29,299 bases of DNA from Candidatus Sumerlaeales bacterium (GCA_038243585.1 JBBSQY010000041.1:1-29299), one strand, 5' to 3'. Positions 1 through 17,789 are shown, counted from the stretch's first letter. Numbers and translations are program-made. Notes: generated from the sequence alone by a model not told the origin.

Positions 1-1400
1 AGCATTGTCATGGCGTTTTCCAGCTCTTCCTGGGCGTCCAGCTTCAGTTCGCAAAACTTTCGGACTTCCCGGTTCCCCAGGTGGGCGTTGCAGTGGATGC
101 CGGGCAGGTCGTGGTAACGTTCGTTCTGGCGCTGCCTTGCGGCGATGACCCTCGCGCGGACGGTGGCGCTGGTTTCCGCCGGGGCGCCCTGCCGCGACAG
201 CTCCCGCACCGGCACCGCCGGCACGTCCACATGCAGATCGATGCGGTCGAGCAGCGGCCCGCTCAGGCGGTTGCGATACTTCTGCACCGCCTGCGGCGGA
301 CACTGGCAGGCGCGGGCCGGATCGGTCAGGTAACCGCAGGGGCACGGGTTGCTGCTTCCGCACAGGATAAACCTGGCCGGAAAAGTCAGACTCATCGCCG
401 CCCGGCTGATATTAACCGACCCGTCTTCCAGCGGCTGGCGCAGCACTTCCAGCACCGGGCGACCAAACTCCGGCATCTCATCCAGGAACAGCACGCCGTT
501 GTGGGCCAGGCTGACTTCGCCAGGCCTCGGAATGCTGCCCCCGCCCACCAGCGCGATATTAGAAATCGTATGATGAGGCGACCGAAACGGCCGCGTGGAG
601 ACCAGCGACTCCTTCGCGGATATGAGGCCGGCGATAGAATGGATCTTCGTCGCCTCGATGCTCTCCTCCAGCGTCATGTCCGGCAGGATAGTAGGCAGTC
701 GCTTCGCCAGCATGGTTTTGCCGCTGCCAGGCGGTCCGATCAGCAGCAAATTATGCCCACCAGCCGCCGCGATTTCCATAGCCCGCTTAGCCCCCGCCTG
801 GCCGCGCACCTCGGAAAAATCCACCGCATAAGAGTTTCCCCGCTGGAACGCCGTCTCCAGATCAACCTTGTGGGGCGTGATCATGTCTTCCCCGTTAAGG
901 TAGCCCACCGCCTGGCGCAGGCTGGCGACCGGGATGATGTTGATGCCTTCAACCACCGCGGCCTCGGCGGCGTTTTCCATGGGAACAAGGAACTCTTCAT
1001 AGCCGTCGTCCCGGGCGGCCAGCGCCATGCTCAGGGTTCCGGCGACAGGCCGCACCTTGCCATCCAGGCCCAGTTCCCCCGTGATGGCGCGCTTGCGCAG
1101 TTGCGACGCGTCGATCTTCGTCAGAGCCCCCAGCAGCCCGATGGCCATGGGCAGGTCCAGCCCGCTGCCCTCCTTGCGAAGATCAGCCGGGGCCAGGTTC
1201 ACAGTCACGTGGCCCTGGGGGCGAAAATACCCGCTAACGGTCAGCGCAGCGCGGATACGTTCCTTGCTGTCCTTCACGGCGGCGTCCGGCAGGCCCACAG
1301 TGTTAAAAGACGACATCTGCCCCTGGACAAAATGGACCTCTACATCAACGCAATAAGCATCGACGCCCAGCACCACATATGTAAAAACCTTTGCGATCAT
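1..1400 (-). CDS. comM: YifB/ComM family Mg-chelatase-like AAA+ ATPase (3' end runs off the window)
   Basis: Hand translation from ATG at 1400: MIAKVFTYVVLGVDAYCVDVEV..TVGLPDAAVKDSKERIRAAL..VTVNLAPADLRKEGSGLDLPMA..GELGLDG..AAAGGHNLLLIGPPGSGKTMLAKRL..RPFRSPHHT..PGEVSLAHNGVLFLDEMPEF..NPCPCG..SGPLLDRIDL. All are hallmark ComM/YifB motifs. No stop before position 1, which is presumably why the ORF track lacks it. Confidence 0.95.
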   Translation of the reverse strand, partial: MIAKVFTYVVLGVDAYCVDVEVHFVQGQMSSFNTVGLPDAAVKDSKERIRAALTVSGYFRPQGHVTVNLAPADLRKEGSGLDLPMAIGLLGALTKIDASQLRKRAITGELGLDGKVRPVAGTLSMALAARDDGYEEFLVPMENAAEAAVVEGINIIPVASLRQAVGYLNGEDMITPHKVDLETAFQRGNSYAVDFSEVRGQAGAKRAMEIAAAGGHNLLLIGPPGSGKTMLAKRLPTILPDMTLEESIEATKIHSIAGLISAKESLVSTRPFRSPHHTISNIALVGGGSIPRPGEVSLAHNGVLFLDEMPEFGRPVLEVLRQPLEDGSVNISRAAMSLTFPARFILCGSSNPCPCGYLTDPARACQCPPQAVQKYRNRLSGPLLDRIDLHVDVPAVPVRELSRQGAPAETSATVRARVIAARQRQNERYHDLPGIHCNAHLGNREVRKFCELKLDAQEELENAMTM

Positions 1401-1505
1401 TGCGGCAACCTTCCCGACGCGACGGAAGAATTTGCAATGACATTTTTAAGGCACGGGGAAATTAGGAGTCGGGAGGGGCGTGACTGCTCAGAAACACGCA
1501 ATCGA

Positions 1506-1925
1506 TTAGAGCTTAAAGTAATCCGGCAGCAGTTCTGCAGCCGTCGTAATGCGACAGGTTTCCGCCGCCCCCTGCTCCGCGGCGATAATCACGCGCATCT
1601 CCGGGTTGAACTCCACCAGCACTTGGCGGCAAGCCCCACATGGCGAGCCACCGTCGGCGGTTACGACAGCAATCGCAGTAGGCCGCCCACACCCCGCCGC
1701 GATGGCCGCACCCAGGGCCACCCGCTCCGCACACATACAAAGGCCATAGCTGGCGTTCTCCATATTGCAGCCGCCATAAACGACACCATCCTCGCCCAAC
1801 ACGGCCGCGCCGACCAGGTATTTGCTATAAGGCGCATAAGCCCGAAGGCGAACAGCCCCGGCGGCTTCAATGAGACGCAGGTCCTCAATATCAAACTTTT
1901 CGTTCCGATTAACATGGTTACTCAT
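1506..1925 (-). CDS. cdd: Cytidine deaminase (homotetrameric type)
   Basis: 139 aa with AYAPYS, NMENASYGLCMCAERVA and PCGACRQ zinc-binding motifs. Confidence 0.95.
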   Translation of the reverse strand: MSNHVNRNEKFDIEDLRLIEAAGAVRLRAYAPYSKYLVGAAVLGEDGVVYGGCNMENASYGLCMCAERVALGAAIAAGCGRPTAIAVVTADGGSPCGACRQVLVEFNPEMRVIIAAEQGAAETCRITTAAELLPDYFKL

Positions 1926-1983
1926 AGTGGAAAACTTTCAGGTTTATATCGAACAGTTAAAATGTTATTATCCTGACAAAAAT

Positions 1984-1998
1984 TGGCACAGCATTTGC
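1984..1998 (+). promoter_or_regulatory. Putative sigma-54 (-24/-12) promoter for the 2055..2618 gene
   Basis: TGGCAC-AGCAT-TTGC has GG-N10-GC spacing and matches the TGGCAC-N5-TTGC consensus. It lies about 57 nt upstream of the ATG in an AT-rich intergenic region. Confidence 0.6.
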
Positions 1999-2054: not shown

Positions 2055-2618
2055 ATGTTAGACGATAAAGACATCCGCGACAGAGATTTAAACAACAACC
2101 GTGATCTGAATGAAAACCGTGAAGAAGTTGATCTGAACAAAGATCCACTGAGCGGCGCTCATGGATCCCATCCCGTTGGTACGGGCGTGGGCGGAGTCGG
2201 CGGAGCAGCAGCCGGCGCAGCCATTGGTGCCGTGGCTGGTCCTCTGGGCTCATTGGTTGGCGGCGCTATCGGCGCTGTTGCCGGTGGTCTGGTCGGCAAA
2301 GGCGTAGCCGAGGGCATCGACCCGACAGTTGAAGAGGGCTACTGGCGTGACAATTACTCCACGCGTCCTTATGTTGGATCATCCAATGATTACAGCTACG
2401 AAGACGACTACCTGCCTGCTTACAAATATGGCTGGGAAAACCGCTCGAAATACCAGGATCGCAGCTTTGACGACGCCGACTCAGAACTGGGAACCGGCTG
2501 GGACCGCAACAAAGGCAACAGCCGTCTCGGCTGGGACGAAGCCAAGCATGCGACCAAAGATGCATGGCATCGTGTAGAGAGAGCAATTCCAGGCGACGCC
2601 GACAACGACGGACGCTAA
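2055..2618 (+). CDS. Small glycine-zipper-containing hypothetical protein
   Basis: 187 aa: acidic Asn/Asp-rich N-terminus, GxxxG zipper (GTGVGGVGGAAAGAAIGAVAGPLGSLVGGAIGAVAGG), then an aromatic/acidic C-terminus (YWRDNYSTRPY, YLPAYKYGWE, LGWDEAKHATKDAWHR). Purine-rich RBS GAAGGGA upstream and clean codon usage. Confidence 0.85.
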   Translation: MLDDKDIRDRDLNNNRDLNENREEVDLNKDPLSGAHGSHPVGTGVGGVGGAAAGAAIGAVAGPLGSLVGGAIGAVAGGLVGKGVAEGIDPTVEEGYWRDNYSTRPYVGSSNDYSYEDDYLPAYKYGWENRSKYQDRSFDDADSELGTGWDRNKGNSRLGWDEAKHATKDAWHRVERAIPGDADNDGR

Positions 2619-12560: not shown

Positions 12561-14477
12561 ATGAACATACTTTCCGCTCAAAGCGTTACCAAGTCCCACG
12601 GCATCAAGCTACTTTTCACAAATCTCTCATTCGGCATCGAAGATAACGACCGCGTCGGCGTGATCGGCGCAAACGGCAGCGGCAAGAGCACCCTGCTCAA
12701 ACTCCTGGCAGGGGAGGAGCCTGCCGACAGCGGCCAGGTGACAGTGCGACAGGGAACCCGCATTGAATATGCGCCGCAGAACCCGGCCTTCAATCCAGCG
12801 CACTCGGTTTTGGACCACATTTTCTCCGCCCATACGGAACTCTCAGACGTACTAAGGGAATATGAAGAGCTCTGCTGCCGCCTCGAAGCCGGACACACCC
12901 AGGTAGACGAAGATCGCCTCGCAGAAGTAATGATGCGCCTCGACGCCATGCAGGGCTGGGAGTATGAGACCAAGGCGCGAACGGTCCTGGCCAAACTTGG
13001 CGTGACAGACCTGACTGCGTCCATGAGCAGCCTGTCTGGCGGCTACCGCAAGCGTGTGACCCTCGCGCGCGCGCTGCTGGCAGAGGCCGATCTGCTGATT
13101 CTCGATGAGCCGACCAACCATCTTGACGCGGACACGGTTTCCTGGCTGGAAGATTATCTTAATCGCATGAGCGGAGCGCTTCTGCTCGTAACCCATGACC
13201 GGTATTTTCTGGACCGTGTAACGAAGCGGATCATCGAACTGGATAACGGCGAGTTGCGGGCCTATGAAGGCAACTTTACCTATTACCTGGAAAAGAAAGC
13301 AGAGCAGGAGGCGGCAGACGTCCGGACGGATGAGCGCCGCAGAAGCATACTCCGTAAGGAACTCGAGTGGCTCAGCCGTGGCGCACGGGCGCGCCGGACA
13401 AAGGAAAAACATCGCGTCGTCAACGTGAGAGAAATGCAGGCAGCCGGGCCTATGCGCAAGGCGGACGCGCTGAAATTTGAATCCGGTGGGCGCCGCCTGG
13501 GCAGCAAGATTGTCGAGATGGAAGACGTGTCGAAATCCCTTGGCGGGCGTACCCTCATCAAGGATTTCACCTACACCATCGCCCCCGGCGAACGCATGGG
13601 CATTTTAGGACCGAACGGCGCGGGCAAAACCACGCTGGTTAATCTTATCAGCGGAAAAATTCTGCCGGACTCCGGGACAATCGAGCTTGGCAGCACAGTC
13701 CAATTTGGATTTTTTGATCAGGAAAGCGCCGGTCTGGATATGGAAGAGCGGGCCATCGATTACGTGAAACGGGACGGCGGTGAAAACCTGAAAGGACCCG
13801 ACGGGTCCGTGCTGTCGGCAGAGCGGATGATGGAACGCTTTCTTTTCACTCCCCAGATGCTGTTCCAGGTGATCGGCAAGCTGTCCGGCGGCGAGCGGCG
13901 GCGGCTGTATTTGGTGCGGACGCTGATGAAAGATCCCAACTTCCTGATTCTGGATGAGCCCACAAACGACCTCGACATCCCGACGCTGCAGGCGCTGGAG
14001 GATTTTCTGGACGGGTTCGGCGGGTGCCTGCTGGTGGTGTCTCATGATCGGTATTTCCTCGATCGCACCGTGAATCACCTGTTGGCCGTCGAGGGAGACG
14101 GCGTGTTGCGTGACTACTCCGGCGATTACAGCCATTACGAGCAGACACGGGTTGCGCGTGCTGCGGAGGACATGGGCGTTGGCAAGCCGGCGTCCAAGCC
14201 CACCGCCTCCGAACAGAAACCAGCCGCAGCCGTGGAGGAAACGCCCGGCACTTCCCGAAAGAAGCTAAGCTTCAAAGAGCAGCGCGAACTGACGGAACTG
14301 GAAGAAAACTTCGTGAAATGGGAAAAGCGGATAAAGGCGATCGAACAGGAACTGTCCGTGCCATCGAGCGATTATAGCATACTTCAGGATCTTACCCGTG
14401 AACAGACAGACCTACAGGCAAAGCTCGATACCGGAATGGAACGGTGGGCGTCGCTGTCAGAGCGGGCCGGGGTTTGA
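12561..14477 (+). CDS. uup: ABC-F family ATPase (Uup-like)
   Basis: Two ABC domains with no TM segments: GANGSGKST / LSGGYRKR / LDEPTNHLD and GPNGAGKTT / LSGGERRR / LDEPTNDLD. Linker ELEWLSRGARARRTK; C-terminal KLSFKEQREL coiled coil ending MERWASL. Confidence 0.92.
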   Translation: MNILSAQSVTKSHGIKLLFTNLSFGIEDNDRVGVIGANGSGKSTLLKLLAGEEPADSGQVTVRQGTRIEYAPQNPAFNPAHSVLDHIFSAHTELSDVLREYEELCCRLEAGHTQVDEDRLAEVMMRLDAMQGWEYETKARTVLAKLGVTDLTASMSSLSGGYRKRVTLARALLAEADLLILDEPTNHLDADTVSWLEDYLNRMSGALLLVTHDRYFLDRVTKRIIELDNGELRAYEGNFTYYLEKKAEQEAADVRTDERRRSILRKELEWLSRGARARRTKEKHRVVNVREMQAAGPMRKADALKFESGGRRLGSKIVEMEDVSKSLGGRTLIKDFTYTIAPGERMGILGPNGAGKTTLVNLISGKILPDSGTIELGSTVQFGFFDQESAGLDMEERAIDYVKRDGGENLKGPDGSVLSAERMMERFLFTPQMLFQVIGKLSGGERRRLYLVRTLMKDPNFLILDEPTNDLDIPTLQALEDFLDGFGGCLLVVSHDRYFLDRTVNHLLAVEGDGVLRDYSGDYSHYEQTRVARAAEDMGVGKPASKPTASEQKPAAAVEETPGTSRKKLSFKEQRELTELEENFVKWEKRIKAIEQELSVPSSDYSILQDLTREQTDLQAKLDTGMERWASLSERAGV

Positions 14478-14481
14478 TTCC

Positions 14482-14653
14482 TGGCGCATAACCGGGACGG
14501 CAGCGTTCCCTCAGACAATAGAGATCCCCGGACGGTTGCTCAGGCCGCCCGGGGCTGTTAAGGAGGTAGTTCTCGCCACCGGTCGGGGTTCAGCTAACCG
14601 GTGGCCTCTTCGTGTTCTCTCACACGAGGGGGTATAAGGCAAGGACGGTGCCA
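14482..14653 (-). ncRNA. Candidate structured non-coding RNA with four hairpins and an exposed anti-Shine-Dalgarno sequence
   Basis: Terminal pairing TGGCGC(14482-87)/GTGCCA(14648-53). Internal stems at 14494-14510, 14526-14554, 14575-14605 (perfect 9 bp GCCACCGGT/ACCGGTGGC) and 14606-14631. ACCTCCTTA on the minus strand at 14559-14567. Strand assigned from recalled similarity to the E. coli ykfJ-prfH upstream region (unverified). Confidence 0.55.
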
Positions 14654-14807
14654 TCAAATTTTCATGCTTTGATAGCAGAGGAAATCAAAAATATCTCCAG
14701 TGCTTTTTAGAGATAATTAATATCGATTTTACCGTACAGCACTACATCTATAGTGGTTAGGAAAAACGAAAAATGCGATCTCCAGGCGGCATGCTCCGTC
14801 TCAAACT

Positions 14808-17789
14808 CTAAAGGATTTCCGCCAGAAATCGCCCGGTGTGACTTTCTGTCACCTGTGCTATCGCGGTCGGGGGACCGCATGCGACCAATTGACCACCCCC
14901 CGAGCCCGCTTCCGGCCCGAGGTCGATTACCCAGTCAGCCTGACGGATGATTTCCAGGTTATGCTCGATGATCAGCAGAGAATACCCGCGCTCCGTCAAC
15001 TGGCGAAACACCCGCGACAGCACGGCGAGGTCAGCAAGGTGGAGACCAGTCGTAGGCTCATCGAAAATCATCATCGTGCGAAGGCCCGTCGTCGCGCCCG
15101 TGTTAGACAGGTAGCTGGCCAGCTTGAGCCGCTGCGCCTCACCCCCGGACAGGGTCGCTGTACTTTGACCAAGGGTCAAATACCCCAGCCCAACGTCCCG
15201 CAGAGGCAGCAGGCGCTTAATAACCGCAGGTTGATCGGCGAAAAACTCGTTGGCGTCATCCACCGTCATACCCAGGATATCATCCACGTTCTTGTCATTC
15301 CAGGTAATCTCTAATACCCGGTTGCCGAACCGTTTCCCATCGCAATCCTCACACGGCAGCGTGACCTCCGCCAGGAAGTGCATGTCATAGGTTACTAGCC
15401 CCGCGCCCTCGCAGGTCTCGCATCGCCCGCCTGGCACGTTGAAAGAGAAATACGTCTCTGTGATGCCCTTGCTTTTGGCTTCTCGCGTGTTCGCAAGCAG
15501 CTTGCGAATGGGGTCGTATGCCTTGACGTAAGTGGCGGGATTGCTGCGGCTGGATCGCCCGATGGCGGATTGGTCCACCAGAATAATGGAACTCAGCTGA
15601 GTCAGCCCTTCCATATTGTCAAACCGCCCGACATCTTCAGAGGACAGTCCCATGGCCTGGTTAAAGCCCTGGAACAGGATGTTGTGTACAAGAGTGGATT
15701 TTCCGCTGCCGGAGACCCCGGAGATGCAGACCCAACAGTTGAGCGGTATGTCCACATTCAGCTTGTTGAGATTGTTTTCCCTGGCGCCCGTGATACGGAT
15801 AAACGGCTCAGGGCAAGGGAGACAGGATTCCGCTTTACCGGCAGACCCAATGGCGGTTTTTGATTTCTTCGGAGAAGTCGCCTTCGATTTCGCCGGTTTG
15901 GCTTTTGCTTTTCCTTTGGCTGCTGCGGCTTCAGGCTGGGATTCAGATAGAGCCAGGCCGGGCACCCTCTGCTCTTTAAGATAGCGCGCTGTCAGGCTTC
16001 CGTTCTTGTCTTTAAGCAAGTCCTCCGGAGTGCCATGAAACATTATCTGACCGCCGTGGCTACCGGCGGCGGGGCCAATGTCCAGCAGGAAGTCAGCCCC
16101 CAGGATCAGTTCCGGGTCATGCTCCACAACCACAACCGTGTTCCCTTTGTCCCGAAGATCCCGCAGGATGCCTAGCAACTTGCGGCTGTCGCGCGGATGC
16201 AGACCGACGGTCGGCTCGTCCAGCACATACAGGGTTTGCGTAAGGGCTGTCCCCAGGGCGGTAGCCAGGTTAATGCGCTGCGCCTCTCCGCCGGAAAGGG
16301 TGCGCGTCTGCCGGTCGAGGGTCAGATATCCCAGGCCGACCCGGTGCAAATACTGCAGACGCACAAGGATCTCCCGATGGACACGCCCAATGGCCTGCTG
16401 CTCATGGGGGAGCAGTTCGATGGTTTCCCATTCCGCCAGAAACTCGCTGATACTCAATCGGGAAACATCTCCGACGGCGCGCCGCTGCCATGCCGATCCC
16501 GCCGTCTCCGGCGCCCAAAACACGTTGTGGGCCGGGCGGGCCAGGCGGGTTCCCCGACACTGAGGGCACTCCGTATATCCGCGATAGCGCGCCACCATTA
16601 TACGCGACTGCACCTTATATCGTTCCGTCTCTAAATCCTTAAAAAACGAAACAATACCCTTATGACCTTTCATCCCATATTTCAGGATGTCGATCTGGTC
16701 CTGCGGCAAATCTTCCAGCGGAACATCAAAAGGGATTTTAGCAAACTGCGCGGTTTTAGTCAGCCATCGATAATTGATTTTGTAGCTGGGCGAGTTAAAC
16801 GGCGCGACCGGTCCATCATTAAGGTTCAATGAGATATTAGGCAACACCTTGTCCCAGTCCACGCCCGTCACGCGGCCAAAGCCTCCGCATTCCTGACAGG
16901 CGCCAAGGGGGCTGTTAAAGGAAAACATATTCGGTTCCGGACGGGGGAAATCCTGACCGCAGTTGTTACACCGATAACCCAGGCGAAAGATCCTCGGCTT
17001 TGCTTTTTCTTCCGCAGACCCGTCCGCAAGGTACACTTCCGCCGCGCCATGGCCAGCCTGAAAGGCTGTGGCAATGGATGACGACATTCGGTCGCGATCG
17101 TCTGCCGACACAGCCAGCCGATCAATAAGCACATGGAGCGTCTTAGAGTCCAGCGCATGATCGGGGACAACAGGGTTGCCCTCGTCCAGTTCAATAAAGG
17201 GGCGGTCGCCTACTCCGGTGTAGATGCGGGTGAAGCCAGCCCGCACAAGCTCGCGAATCAGCGCGTCGCCGGTCACAGCTACACTGTGGGCAATCGGCGC
17301 GACCACATAGACCCGCGCGCCGTCGTGATTTTTAAGATAATATTCCGTCACCGACTGCGGGGAATCCTCCCGGACTTCAATGTCGCAGTTGGGGCAGATC
17401 GTCTTGCCGGCTTTGGCGTAAAGCAGGCGCAGGTAATCAGAAATCTCCGTCGCCGTGCCGATGGTGCTGCGGGCGTTCTTAACCGTATTCTTCTGCTCAA
17501 TGGCGATGGCCGGTTGAATGTTGCGGACGTGATCCACGTCCGGGCGCTCCATCTTTTCGATGAACTGCCGGGCGTACGTGCTCATGCTTTCGACAAAGCG
17601 GCGCTGTCCCTCGGCGTAGAGGGTGTCGAAGGCGAGAGACGATTTACCGCTCCCTGACGGGCCGGTTACGACGGTCAGTTTTCCGAGAGGAATTTCCACA
17701 GAAATGTTTTTAAGGTTATGGGTTCTGGCGCCGAGGATTTCAATAAAACGGCGATTATGGCGGACGGGCGGTTTTGGAGGCATAGTCAC
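14808..17789 (-). CDS. uvrA: Excinuclease ABC subunit UvrA
   Basis: GARTHNLKN, Walker [28 protein letters not shown], two LSGGEAQR signatures, second Walker [10 protein letters not shown], zinc finger CETCEG..CEDCDG, DLGPEAG. Start is GTG 17789 or ATG 17783. Confidence 0.97.

Follow-up and report, generated by a model that had tools for sequence, protein, structure and literature searches.

The locus

The element described here lies in a window of 29,299 nt (the whole stretch of DNA that was analysed) from the genome of a Candidatus Sumerlaeales bacterium, hereafter the source genome (G000). Two genes converge on it from either side, an ABC-F family ATPase gene on the plus strand and uvrA on the minus strand, and their stops enclose a gap of 330 nt (Table 1). 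The convergence was correctly described in the original prediction, which named the plus-strand gene uup. Its product has the length of Uup, but among the NCBIfam models it satisfies only the general ABC-F one (ribo_prot_ABC_F, 419 bits against a cut-off of 380) and stays below the curated cut-offs for Uup (486 against 900 bits) and EttA (496 against 599 bits).

The base composition changes within the gap, as had been noticed: the GC fraction is 0.55–0.67 over 14450–14659 and 0.30–0.35 over 14660–14779. The AT-rich stretch had been described as promoter-like. It is indeed AT-rich, but a scan for sigma-70-like promoters returned no sites in 14300–14900. It sits upstream of the sigma-54 promoter described below, and the spacer between the uvrA stop and that promoter is a possible site for activator binding or DNA bending.

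The GC-rich part of the gap contains more than a terminator. It has no minus-strand protein gene downstream and, as originally proposed, probably represents a free-standing non-coding RNA. A small-ORF check of the core, in all frames, found no start codon with a Shine–Dalgarno site common to the two species in which the element is known, the source genome and a second species of the same genus (G002).

Table 1. Features in and around the gap between the ABC-F and uvrA genes, in plus-strand order. Minus-strand RNA features are predictions.
Feature	Position	Strand	Description
ABC-F family ATPase gene	12561–14477	+	638 aa, Uup-like length; convergent neighbour; in G002 not linked to the element
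Non-conserved spacer, ABC-F stop to RNA end	14478–14512		Contains the earlier-noted hairpin 14494–14510 and one ‘complementary end’
U-rich tail	14513–14525	-	AUCUCUAUUGUCU, weak U-tract (7 U in 13), directly 3′ of hairpin 3
Hairpin 3	14526–14554	-	10-bp GC stem CCCCGGGCGG/CCGUCCGGGG, 9-nt loop; folds in both species
Linker	14555–14574	-	GAGAACUACCUCCUUAACAG, single-stranded; anti-Shine–Dalgarno-like ACCUCCUU at 14567–14560
Hairpin 2	14575–14605	-	10-bp stem GCCACCGGUU/GACCGGUGGC (10 pairs), C-rich 11-nt loop AGCUGAACCCC
Hairpin 1	14610–14627	-	CGUGU-GAGAGA-ACACG; five pairs (14611–14626) and loop identical in G002
Predicted transcription start	14627 ± 2 nt	-	Usual sigma-54 geometry; 12 nt downstream of the -12 GC
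Sigma-54 (RpoN) promoter, -24/-12	14639–14653	-	TGGCAC-N5-TTGC, TGGCACCGTCCTTGC; exact consensus
AT-rich spacer, uvrA stop to promoter	14654–14807	-	Candidate activator-binding or DNA-bending region
uvrA	14808–17789	-	TIGR00630, 962 bits (cut-off 729.8)

Structure of the predicted RNA

When 14478–14660 was folded, the plus strand reached -82.9 kcal/mol (z = -3.53) and the minus strand -73.8 kcal/mol (z = -3.56), and on either strand just one of 200 shuffles folded as well, which bears out the strong structure claimed for the island. Over this whole region of the source genome, the plus-strand fold is thus slightly the better one. Folding of the element RNAs predicts three hairpins common to the two species, with z scores of -4.36 (none of 200 shuffles equally good) and -3.67 (1 of 200). 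The structure itself is real, and it is probably functional.

Four consecutive hairpins had been listed originally. Three of them (14526–14554, 14575–14605 and approximately 14606–14631) recur in G002 and are retained here as hairpins 3, 2 and 1, respectively; the fourth, at 14494–14510, is partly in non-conserved sequence and was dropped. The complementary ends that had been ascribed to the island were given up as well: they are partly non-conserved in G002, and one end is the sigma-54 promoter motif.

Hairpin 1 has a sixth pair, U-A (14627 with 14610), predicted in the source genome only, G002 having five pairs. Since the hairpin is invariant in alignment A2 of the two species, it yields no covariation evidence either way. 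The stem of hairpin 2, by comparison, carries five substitutions between the two species, all of which preserve pairing (19/19 cells paired). Two pairs are altered on both sides (C-G to U-A and A-U to G-C), and one C-G pair becomes U-G. The covariation values of hairpin 2 were matched in 136 of 500 column shuffles of the two sequences, and because the element is known in just two distinct sequences, covariation is statistically weak; the compensatory changes are suggestive, but not significant.

Between hairpins 2 and 3 is the linker with its ACCUCCUU motif, which has the same letters in both species. In the folding models CCUCCUU is mostly unpaired, with a mean probability of 0.57 in the source genome and 0.71 in G002, and the motif is the putative seed. 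Its complement on the plus strand is AAGGAGGT, and no start codon comes after it.

In hairpin 3, one stem G-U pair of the source genome is G-C in G002, and the loop and the 5′ arm are the same in both. As modelled, it is the probable stem of an intrinsic terminator. A simple terminator scan, which has a loop limit of 8 nt, left it unflagged; its loop has 9 nt. Hairpins 1 and 3 hardly vary and therefore say little on structure. At the place in G002 that matches the U-rich tail is UUUUGGUUUUCU, a canonical U-tract. The absence of a U-tract, which had been counted as a property of the island, is accordingly true of its plus strand and untrue of its minus strand. The RNA probably ends near 14516.

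The predicted sigma-54 promoter and its machinery

The exact sequence TGGCAC-N5-TTGC occurs twice in the window, against 0.10 occurrences expected, and none of 100 shuffles contained it two or more times. G002 has TGGCACCGAGATTGC at the same place: the hexamer and the tetramer are unchanged, and the five spacer bases differ. The source genome as a whole contains 15 matches, whereas three permuted versions of the motif give 2, 6 and 6. At nine of the 15, a Shine–Dalgarno site and an ORF of at least 60 aa begin 38–104 nt downstream, an arrangement found 0–1 times for the permuted controls. By these counts, TGGCAC-N5-TTGC behaves as a real promoter in the source genome.

Transcription from a sigma-54 promoter usually starts about 12 nt past the GC of the -12 element. 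The start predicted by this rule, around 14627, coincides with the first base of hairpin 1.

The source genome also encodes the machinery that such a promoter uses. Its rpoN product reaches 448.2 bits (cut-off 277.35), and six sigma-54 activator domains (PF00158) score between 170 and 254 bits. Sigma-54 promoters need an ATP-dependent activator, so the RNA would be made only on a signal. A comparison of the G000 and G002 spacers found no shared upstream activator site, neither a common inverted repeat nor a common k-mer of 8 or more. Certain sigma-54 activators function without binding to DNA.

Conservation and distribution

When G000 and G002 are aligned from the uvrA stop, 55 of 160 positions upstream of the promoter are identical (34%). 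From hairpin 1 to the terminator, identity rises to 74 of 100 columns in alignment A1 (MAFFT) and 83% in A2, and beyond the terminator it falls to 23 of 64 columns (36%). The lower value in A1 reflects a one-column slip in hairpin 2 that realignment to the model did not remedy, and hairpin 2 was therefore aligned separately. In this comparison, conservation is restricted to the promoter and the predicted RNA gene. The element is found some 155–160 nt past the uvrA stop in both species, and its neighbour on the far side is the ABC-F gene in the source genome and a gene for a DsbD_N-domain protein in G002.

The distribution is narrow. A search of the element's own genome matched only the element itself, and blastn against the genomes of 61 relatives matched the same-genus G002, with 84% identity over the core. 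One further blastn match, of 22 nt in genome G047 (E = 0.006), was taken as chance. A covariance model (R1) was built from the G000 and G002 copies and run over 73 genomes of the class. It recovered these two at E values of about 1e-41 and nothing else better than 0.005, so the element was found in 2 of the 73. There were 12 weak matches, with E values of 0.005–0.9. The ten full-length ones were inspected; they have no sigma-54-like motif upstream and resemble coding DNA or ordinary terminators, and they were rejected. The other two (L052 and L057) are partial and cover the terminator only.

Other searches gave a similar picture. Downstream of the uvrA orthologue in 12 genomes of the family, the promoter motif and the element are found in G000 and G002 only; in G001, a third species from this genus, a uvrA paralogue alone is seen, which makes this assembly uninformative on the element. 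A pattern that combined promoter and seed matched G000 and G002 in the class, plus a site in G030 that leads into an ORF; the reversed control had six matches. A scan of a species-genome collection produced one match, in another Candidatus Sumerlaeales MAG (L033), which is identical to the G002 element over the aligned columns, so that no third sequence was gained. In metagenome contigs, a pattern suiting both species had no matches, and searches of plasmids, phages and viral contigs for the element had none. DNA contigs from a mat metagenome do contain a relative, about 88% identical and with the same ABC-F and uvrA flanks. The contigs listed span 14348–14498 and 14586–14995, and hairpins 2 and 3 fall between them. 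A low-depth variant occurs in another run. Of the listed public sequencing runs containing this DNA, none is recorded as RNA.

The Rfam 15 covariance models gave no matches at gathering score in the whole window. At E values up to 10, two sub-threshold matches appeared, one to Flavo-1 (17.4 bits, threshold 42) and one to sX11 (13.2 bits, threshold 70). The element, single-copy in its genome, is thus neither a described Rfam family nor a genome-wide repeat. It is probably a stand-alone gene, restricted to one genus, for a predicted RNA of about 112 nt that would run from around 14627 to around 14516.

Direction of transcription and competing readings of the locus

The promoter, the G-U pairs and the UUUUGGUUUUCU tract of G002 are three indirect signs that suggest transcription from the minus strand. 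In the source genome, the core folds about equally well on the two strands (-51.0 vs. -51.9 kcal/mol). In G002, the minus-strand fold of hairpin 2 reaches -19.5 kcal/mol and the plus-strand fold -10.8 kcal/mol; the minus strand is favoured because its G-U pairs become A-C mismatches on the other. Judged from sequence, it is moderately likely that the element is a small RNA transcribed from the minus strand under the control of sigma-54.

The same promoter could instead drive a cis-antisense RNA. The hairpins would then be no more than its 5′ leader, and transcription would continue past the weak terminator, antisense to the 3′ end of ABC-F, and so modulate that gene. Read-through would fit the weak U-tract AUCUCUAUUGUCU of the source genome, where the simple scan flags no terminator, and the ABC-F stop is merely 49 nt beyond hairpin 3. 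Against this, G002 has a canonical U-tract after hairpin 3, and conservation ends at the terminator. Because G002 combines that U-tract with an unrelated convergent neighbour, antisense action on ABC-F cannot be the conserved function, and this reading is unlikely.

It is likewise improbable that the hairpins act from the plus strand, or irrespective of strand, as a stack serving to terminate or stabilise the ABC-F and uvrA mRNAs that converge there, with the sigma-54 motif present by chance. The location between two convergent stops is what such a stack would require, and in the source genome the plus strand folds at least equally well. However, no plus-strand hairpin has a U-tract after it, hairpin 2 of G002 is far weaker on that strand, and the element is kept in G002 although the upstream gene on the plus strand is a different one. 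To reach the hairpins, a uvrA transcript would need to extend through about 155 nt of spacer that is not conserved, and chance is an unlikely origin for a 10-base promoter consensus that is kept amid flanks of 34% identity.

Possible mode of action

Under the favoured reading, a small RNA made from a sigma-54 promoter, sigma-54 RNA polymerase would bind to TGGCAC-N5-TTGC at 14653–14639 and produce a transcript with two 5′ hairpins, an unpaired ACCUCCUU linker, a GC-rich terminator hairpin and a U-rich tail. The linker copies the anti-Shine–Dalgarno sequence and would most likely pair with the ribosome-binding site of at least one mRNA, the translation of which would thereby be blocked; the C-rich loop of hairpin 2 may assist in the pairing. 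Action through ribosome-binding sites is put forward tentatively, as a possibility suggested by the linker motif.

Candidate targets were sought among 4,202 candidate start regions, for which the duplex energies had a mean of -9.0 kcal/mol and a standard deviation of 2.65, with a tail of duplexes, down to -19.4 kcal/mol, on ribosome-binding sites that look plausible. Seven candidate targets were annotated and are unrelated: a protein of no family, an ABC ATPase, a pseudopilin-type protein, a nucleotidyl transferase with a probable internal start, ActD, shikimate dehydrogenase and a transaldolase/PGI fusion. No coherent target set emerged from the scan of these 4,202 regions. For the G002 orthologue of the best candidate, the cognate duplex has an energy of -14.3 kcal/mol and the crossed pairs -14.7 and -13.1 kcal/mol; the cognate pairing is no better than the crossed ones, and this one G000/G002 orthologue pair lends no support to co-variation of RNA and target. 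The query used for the second candidate target did not find an orthologue in G002. No Hfq gene was found in the source genome, which is 89.7% complete.

A small RNA of this design might also work through a protein or the ribosome rather than by pairing with mRNA, either as a sponge for an RNA-binding protein or as a decoy that imitates the 3′ end of 16S rRNA, where ...CACCUCCUU comes after a hairpin. The succession of hairpin 2, 6–8 nt and CCUCCUU resembles the order of helix 45, spacer and anti-Shine–Dalgarno sequence in 16S rRNA, and there is precedent in sigma-54-dependent RNAs such as GlmY and CrcZ, which sequester proteins. The loop of hairpin 2, however, has 11 nt whereas helix 45 has a tetraloop, no CsrA gene was found in the source genome, and the RNA has no repeated GGA or CA-rich motifs. 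This mode of action is quite unlikely.

A more far-reaching variant, rated as very unlikely, is mimicry, under signal control, of the mRNA-docking end of 16S rRNA, the arrangement of a hairpin and then (C/U)ACCUCCUU being like helix 45 with its anti-Shine–Dalgarno tail. Such an RNA, in a lineage in which neither Hfq nor CsrA was found, would compete with the 30S subunit for strong Shine–Dalgarno sites in many mRNAs and act as a global brake on translation rather than on a few targets, or it would be a decoy for factors acting on the 16S 3′ end. The 16S 3′ end itself was not found in the source assembly with one conserved motif.

The supposed link to rtcB2-prfH

The original prediction rested in part on a supposed close match between blocks of the minus strand and the E. 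coli region upstream of ykfJ(rtcB2)-prfH, and it read the element as an orphan resembling the rtcB2-prfH leader, conserved across distant bacteria or mobile, or else as the relic of a deleted rtcB2-prfH operon. This match could not be recovered. A blastn search of 20,395 E. coli records (word size 11, E up to 0.01) found no match to the element. Against the 7-kb ykfJ-prfH locus of K-12, four of the blocks have 5, 2, 6 and 4 mismatches, values no better than those of 20 shuffles, and the only blastn-short matches were 9–13 nt long, at an E value of 4. According to PMC1586002, the K-12 deletion has taken away the C-terminal part of the gene upstream together with the N-terminal part of prfH; the region upstream of ykfJ is therefore native. 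The searched portions of PMC9223846 and PMC1586002 mention no leader RNA for rtcB2-prfH.

Nor does the source genome, at 89.7% completeness, offer partners for such a leader: RtcB (PF01139) had no matches, and the three PrfH (TIGR03072) matches, of 119.8, 88.6 and 49.6 bits, are all below the cut-off of 166.65. A relic is further at odds with an element that is intact in a second species with compensatory changes, and wide conservation or mobility with a single copy, present in two of the 73 class genomes and missing from the plasmid, phage, viral and metagenome sets searched.

One of the blocks, ATGGCACCGTCCTTGCCT, is the textbook sigma-54 promoter TGGCAC-N5-TTGC. The rtcBA operon of E. coli has a sigma-54 promoter, which might explain the mistaken association with rtcB2-prfH. 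Between the element and E. coli rtcB2(ykfJ)-prfH or rtcBA, there is at most a sigma-54-type motif in common, and the element has no similarity to any E. coli genome searched. An orphan copy or relic of an rtcB2-prfH leader, in favour of which there is the supposed match and the sigma-54-type promoter sequence that both loci may have, is hardly credible and, as far as sequence searches reach, is refuted.

Significance

If the small-RNA reading is true, the element would give the uncultured Sumerlaeales a first candidate regulatory sRNA, one whose promoter is predicted to be of the sigma-54 type; a sample of titles and opening lines of abstracts from the literature under the phylum name showed no RNA regulators. 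The candidate promoter and the RNA would provide a handle on the signals behind the sigma-54 activators of these bacteria, and the RNA would be a further example of regulation of the anti-Shine–Dalgarno type in a genome where Hfq was not found. There is also a correction to be made, in that the link with ribosome repair by RtcB2-PrfH is without support. The finding is a narrow one, comprising two sequences from a single genus, and the kind of RNA is already familiar.

Relation to known systems

Stand-alone sRNA genes with sigma-54 promoters of the TGGCA-N-TTGC type, dependent on an enhancer-binding activator, include Qrr1-5 of Vibrio as well as GlmY, CrcZ, NrsZ and Pxr. The Sumerlaeales element differs from these in that it has no Rfam match, no adjacent activator gene and no recognised upstream activator site.

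Among rhizobial RNAs, Alpha-r14/NfeR1 and AbcR carry unpaired anti-Shine–Dalgarno motifs (CCUCCUCCC) that occlude the ribosome-binding sites of several mRNAs, and NfeR1 is under the control of LsrB and NtrC; the motif occurs three times in these RNAs, in hairpin loops (PMC10746234). The Sumerlaeales element would present a single ACCUCCUU in the linker together with a C-rich loop, and there is no homology between them.

A nearer parallel is CJnc230 (FlmR) of Campylobacter jejuni, an RpoN-dependent RNA of about 100 nt encoded downstream of flgE, in which two stem-loops are arranged around a single-stranded anti-Shine–Dalgarno stretch (PMC11187230). CJnc230 belongs to the flagellar cascade, whereas the Sumerlaeales element follows uvrA, has three predicted hairpins and is a prediction from sequence; no sequence likeness between the two was found, and none would be expected. 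What they would share, going by PMC11187230 and by the predictions made here, is sigma-54 control, a length of about 100 nt, a position just past a protein gene on the same strand, restriction to one genus, and stem-loops that flank a conserved single-stranded anti-Shine–Dalgarno motif. By analogy, the closest described design to that of the predicted Sumerlaeales RNA is C. jejuni CJnc230.

Other sigma-54 promoter matches

Besides the promoter of the element, the predicted small RNA gene between the ABC-F gene and uvrA, the window contains a second exact match to the sigma-54 consensus, with a 187-aa open reading frame (ORF) that begins 56 nt downstream of it. Neither this ORF nor the 657-aa ORF that precedes the motif was assigned to a family, Pfam having been searched for the former. 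Elsewhere in the same genome, a match on contig C2 falls within a 536-codon open frame. The surroundings of the exact matches on contigs C16 and C52 lack long open frames, and no Shine-Dalgarno sequence with an ORF of at least 60 aa was found within 160 nt of either. These two sites could belong to additional sigma-54-driven small RNAs, or else to genes whose starts are weak.

Coordinates of the sigma-54 motif matches and other features
Feature	Location	Strand
Exact sigma-54 match, TGGCACAGCATTTGC	window 1984-1998	+
187-aa ORF	window 2055-2618	+
657-aa ORF	window 3-1976	
Exact sigma-54 match	G000:C16:14823	-
Exact sigma-54 match	G000:C52:4727	+
Sigma-54 match	G000:C2:99322	
Inverted pair AGTGCT...AGCACT	window 14700-14745	
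Inverted pair AGCGC...ACGCT	G002, locus L002, ~1655-1700	
ABC-F gene	window 12561-14477	+

Surroundings of the element

Inspection by eye of the sequences downstream of uvrA revealed a short inverted pair both in the window and in the same-genus relative G002, with arms ~30-35 nt apart, ~80 nt from the sigma-54 promoter on its upstream side. The pair fell under the thresholds of the repeat finder. It could represent an activator site, a hairpin at the uvrA 3' end or chance.

Two uvrA-type genes are present in each of 12 of the 13 family genomes searched (loci L020-L032), and the C-terminal 200 aa of the paired genes share ~50% identity. G001, the third species of the genus, gave a single uvrA-type match (51% identity).

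A variant of the RNA region was found in X1, a DNA sequencing run with contigs matching the window and possibly the one from which the window itself came. Record 5, a 179-nt contig of low depth (2.2), spans the putative seed and terminator and differs from window 14527-14581 at 8 of 55 nt; it possibly derives from another strain or species that has the RNA as well.

The gene labelled "uup" encodes an ABC-F ATPase that scores below both curated cut-offs, with 486 bits against the 900 set for Uup and 496 against the 599 set for EttA.
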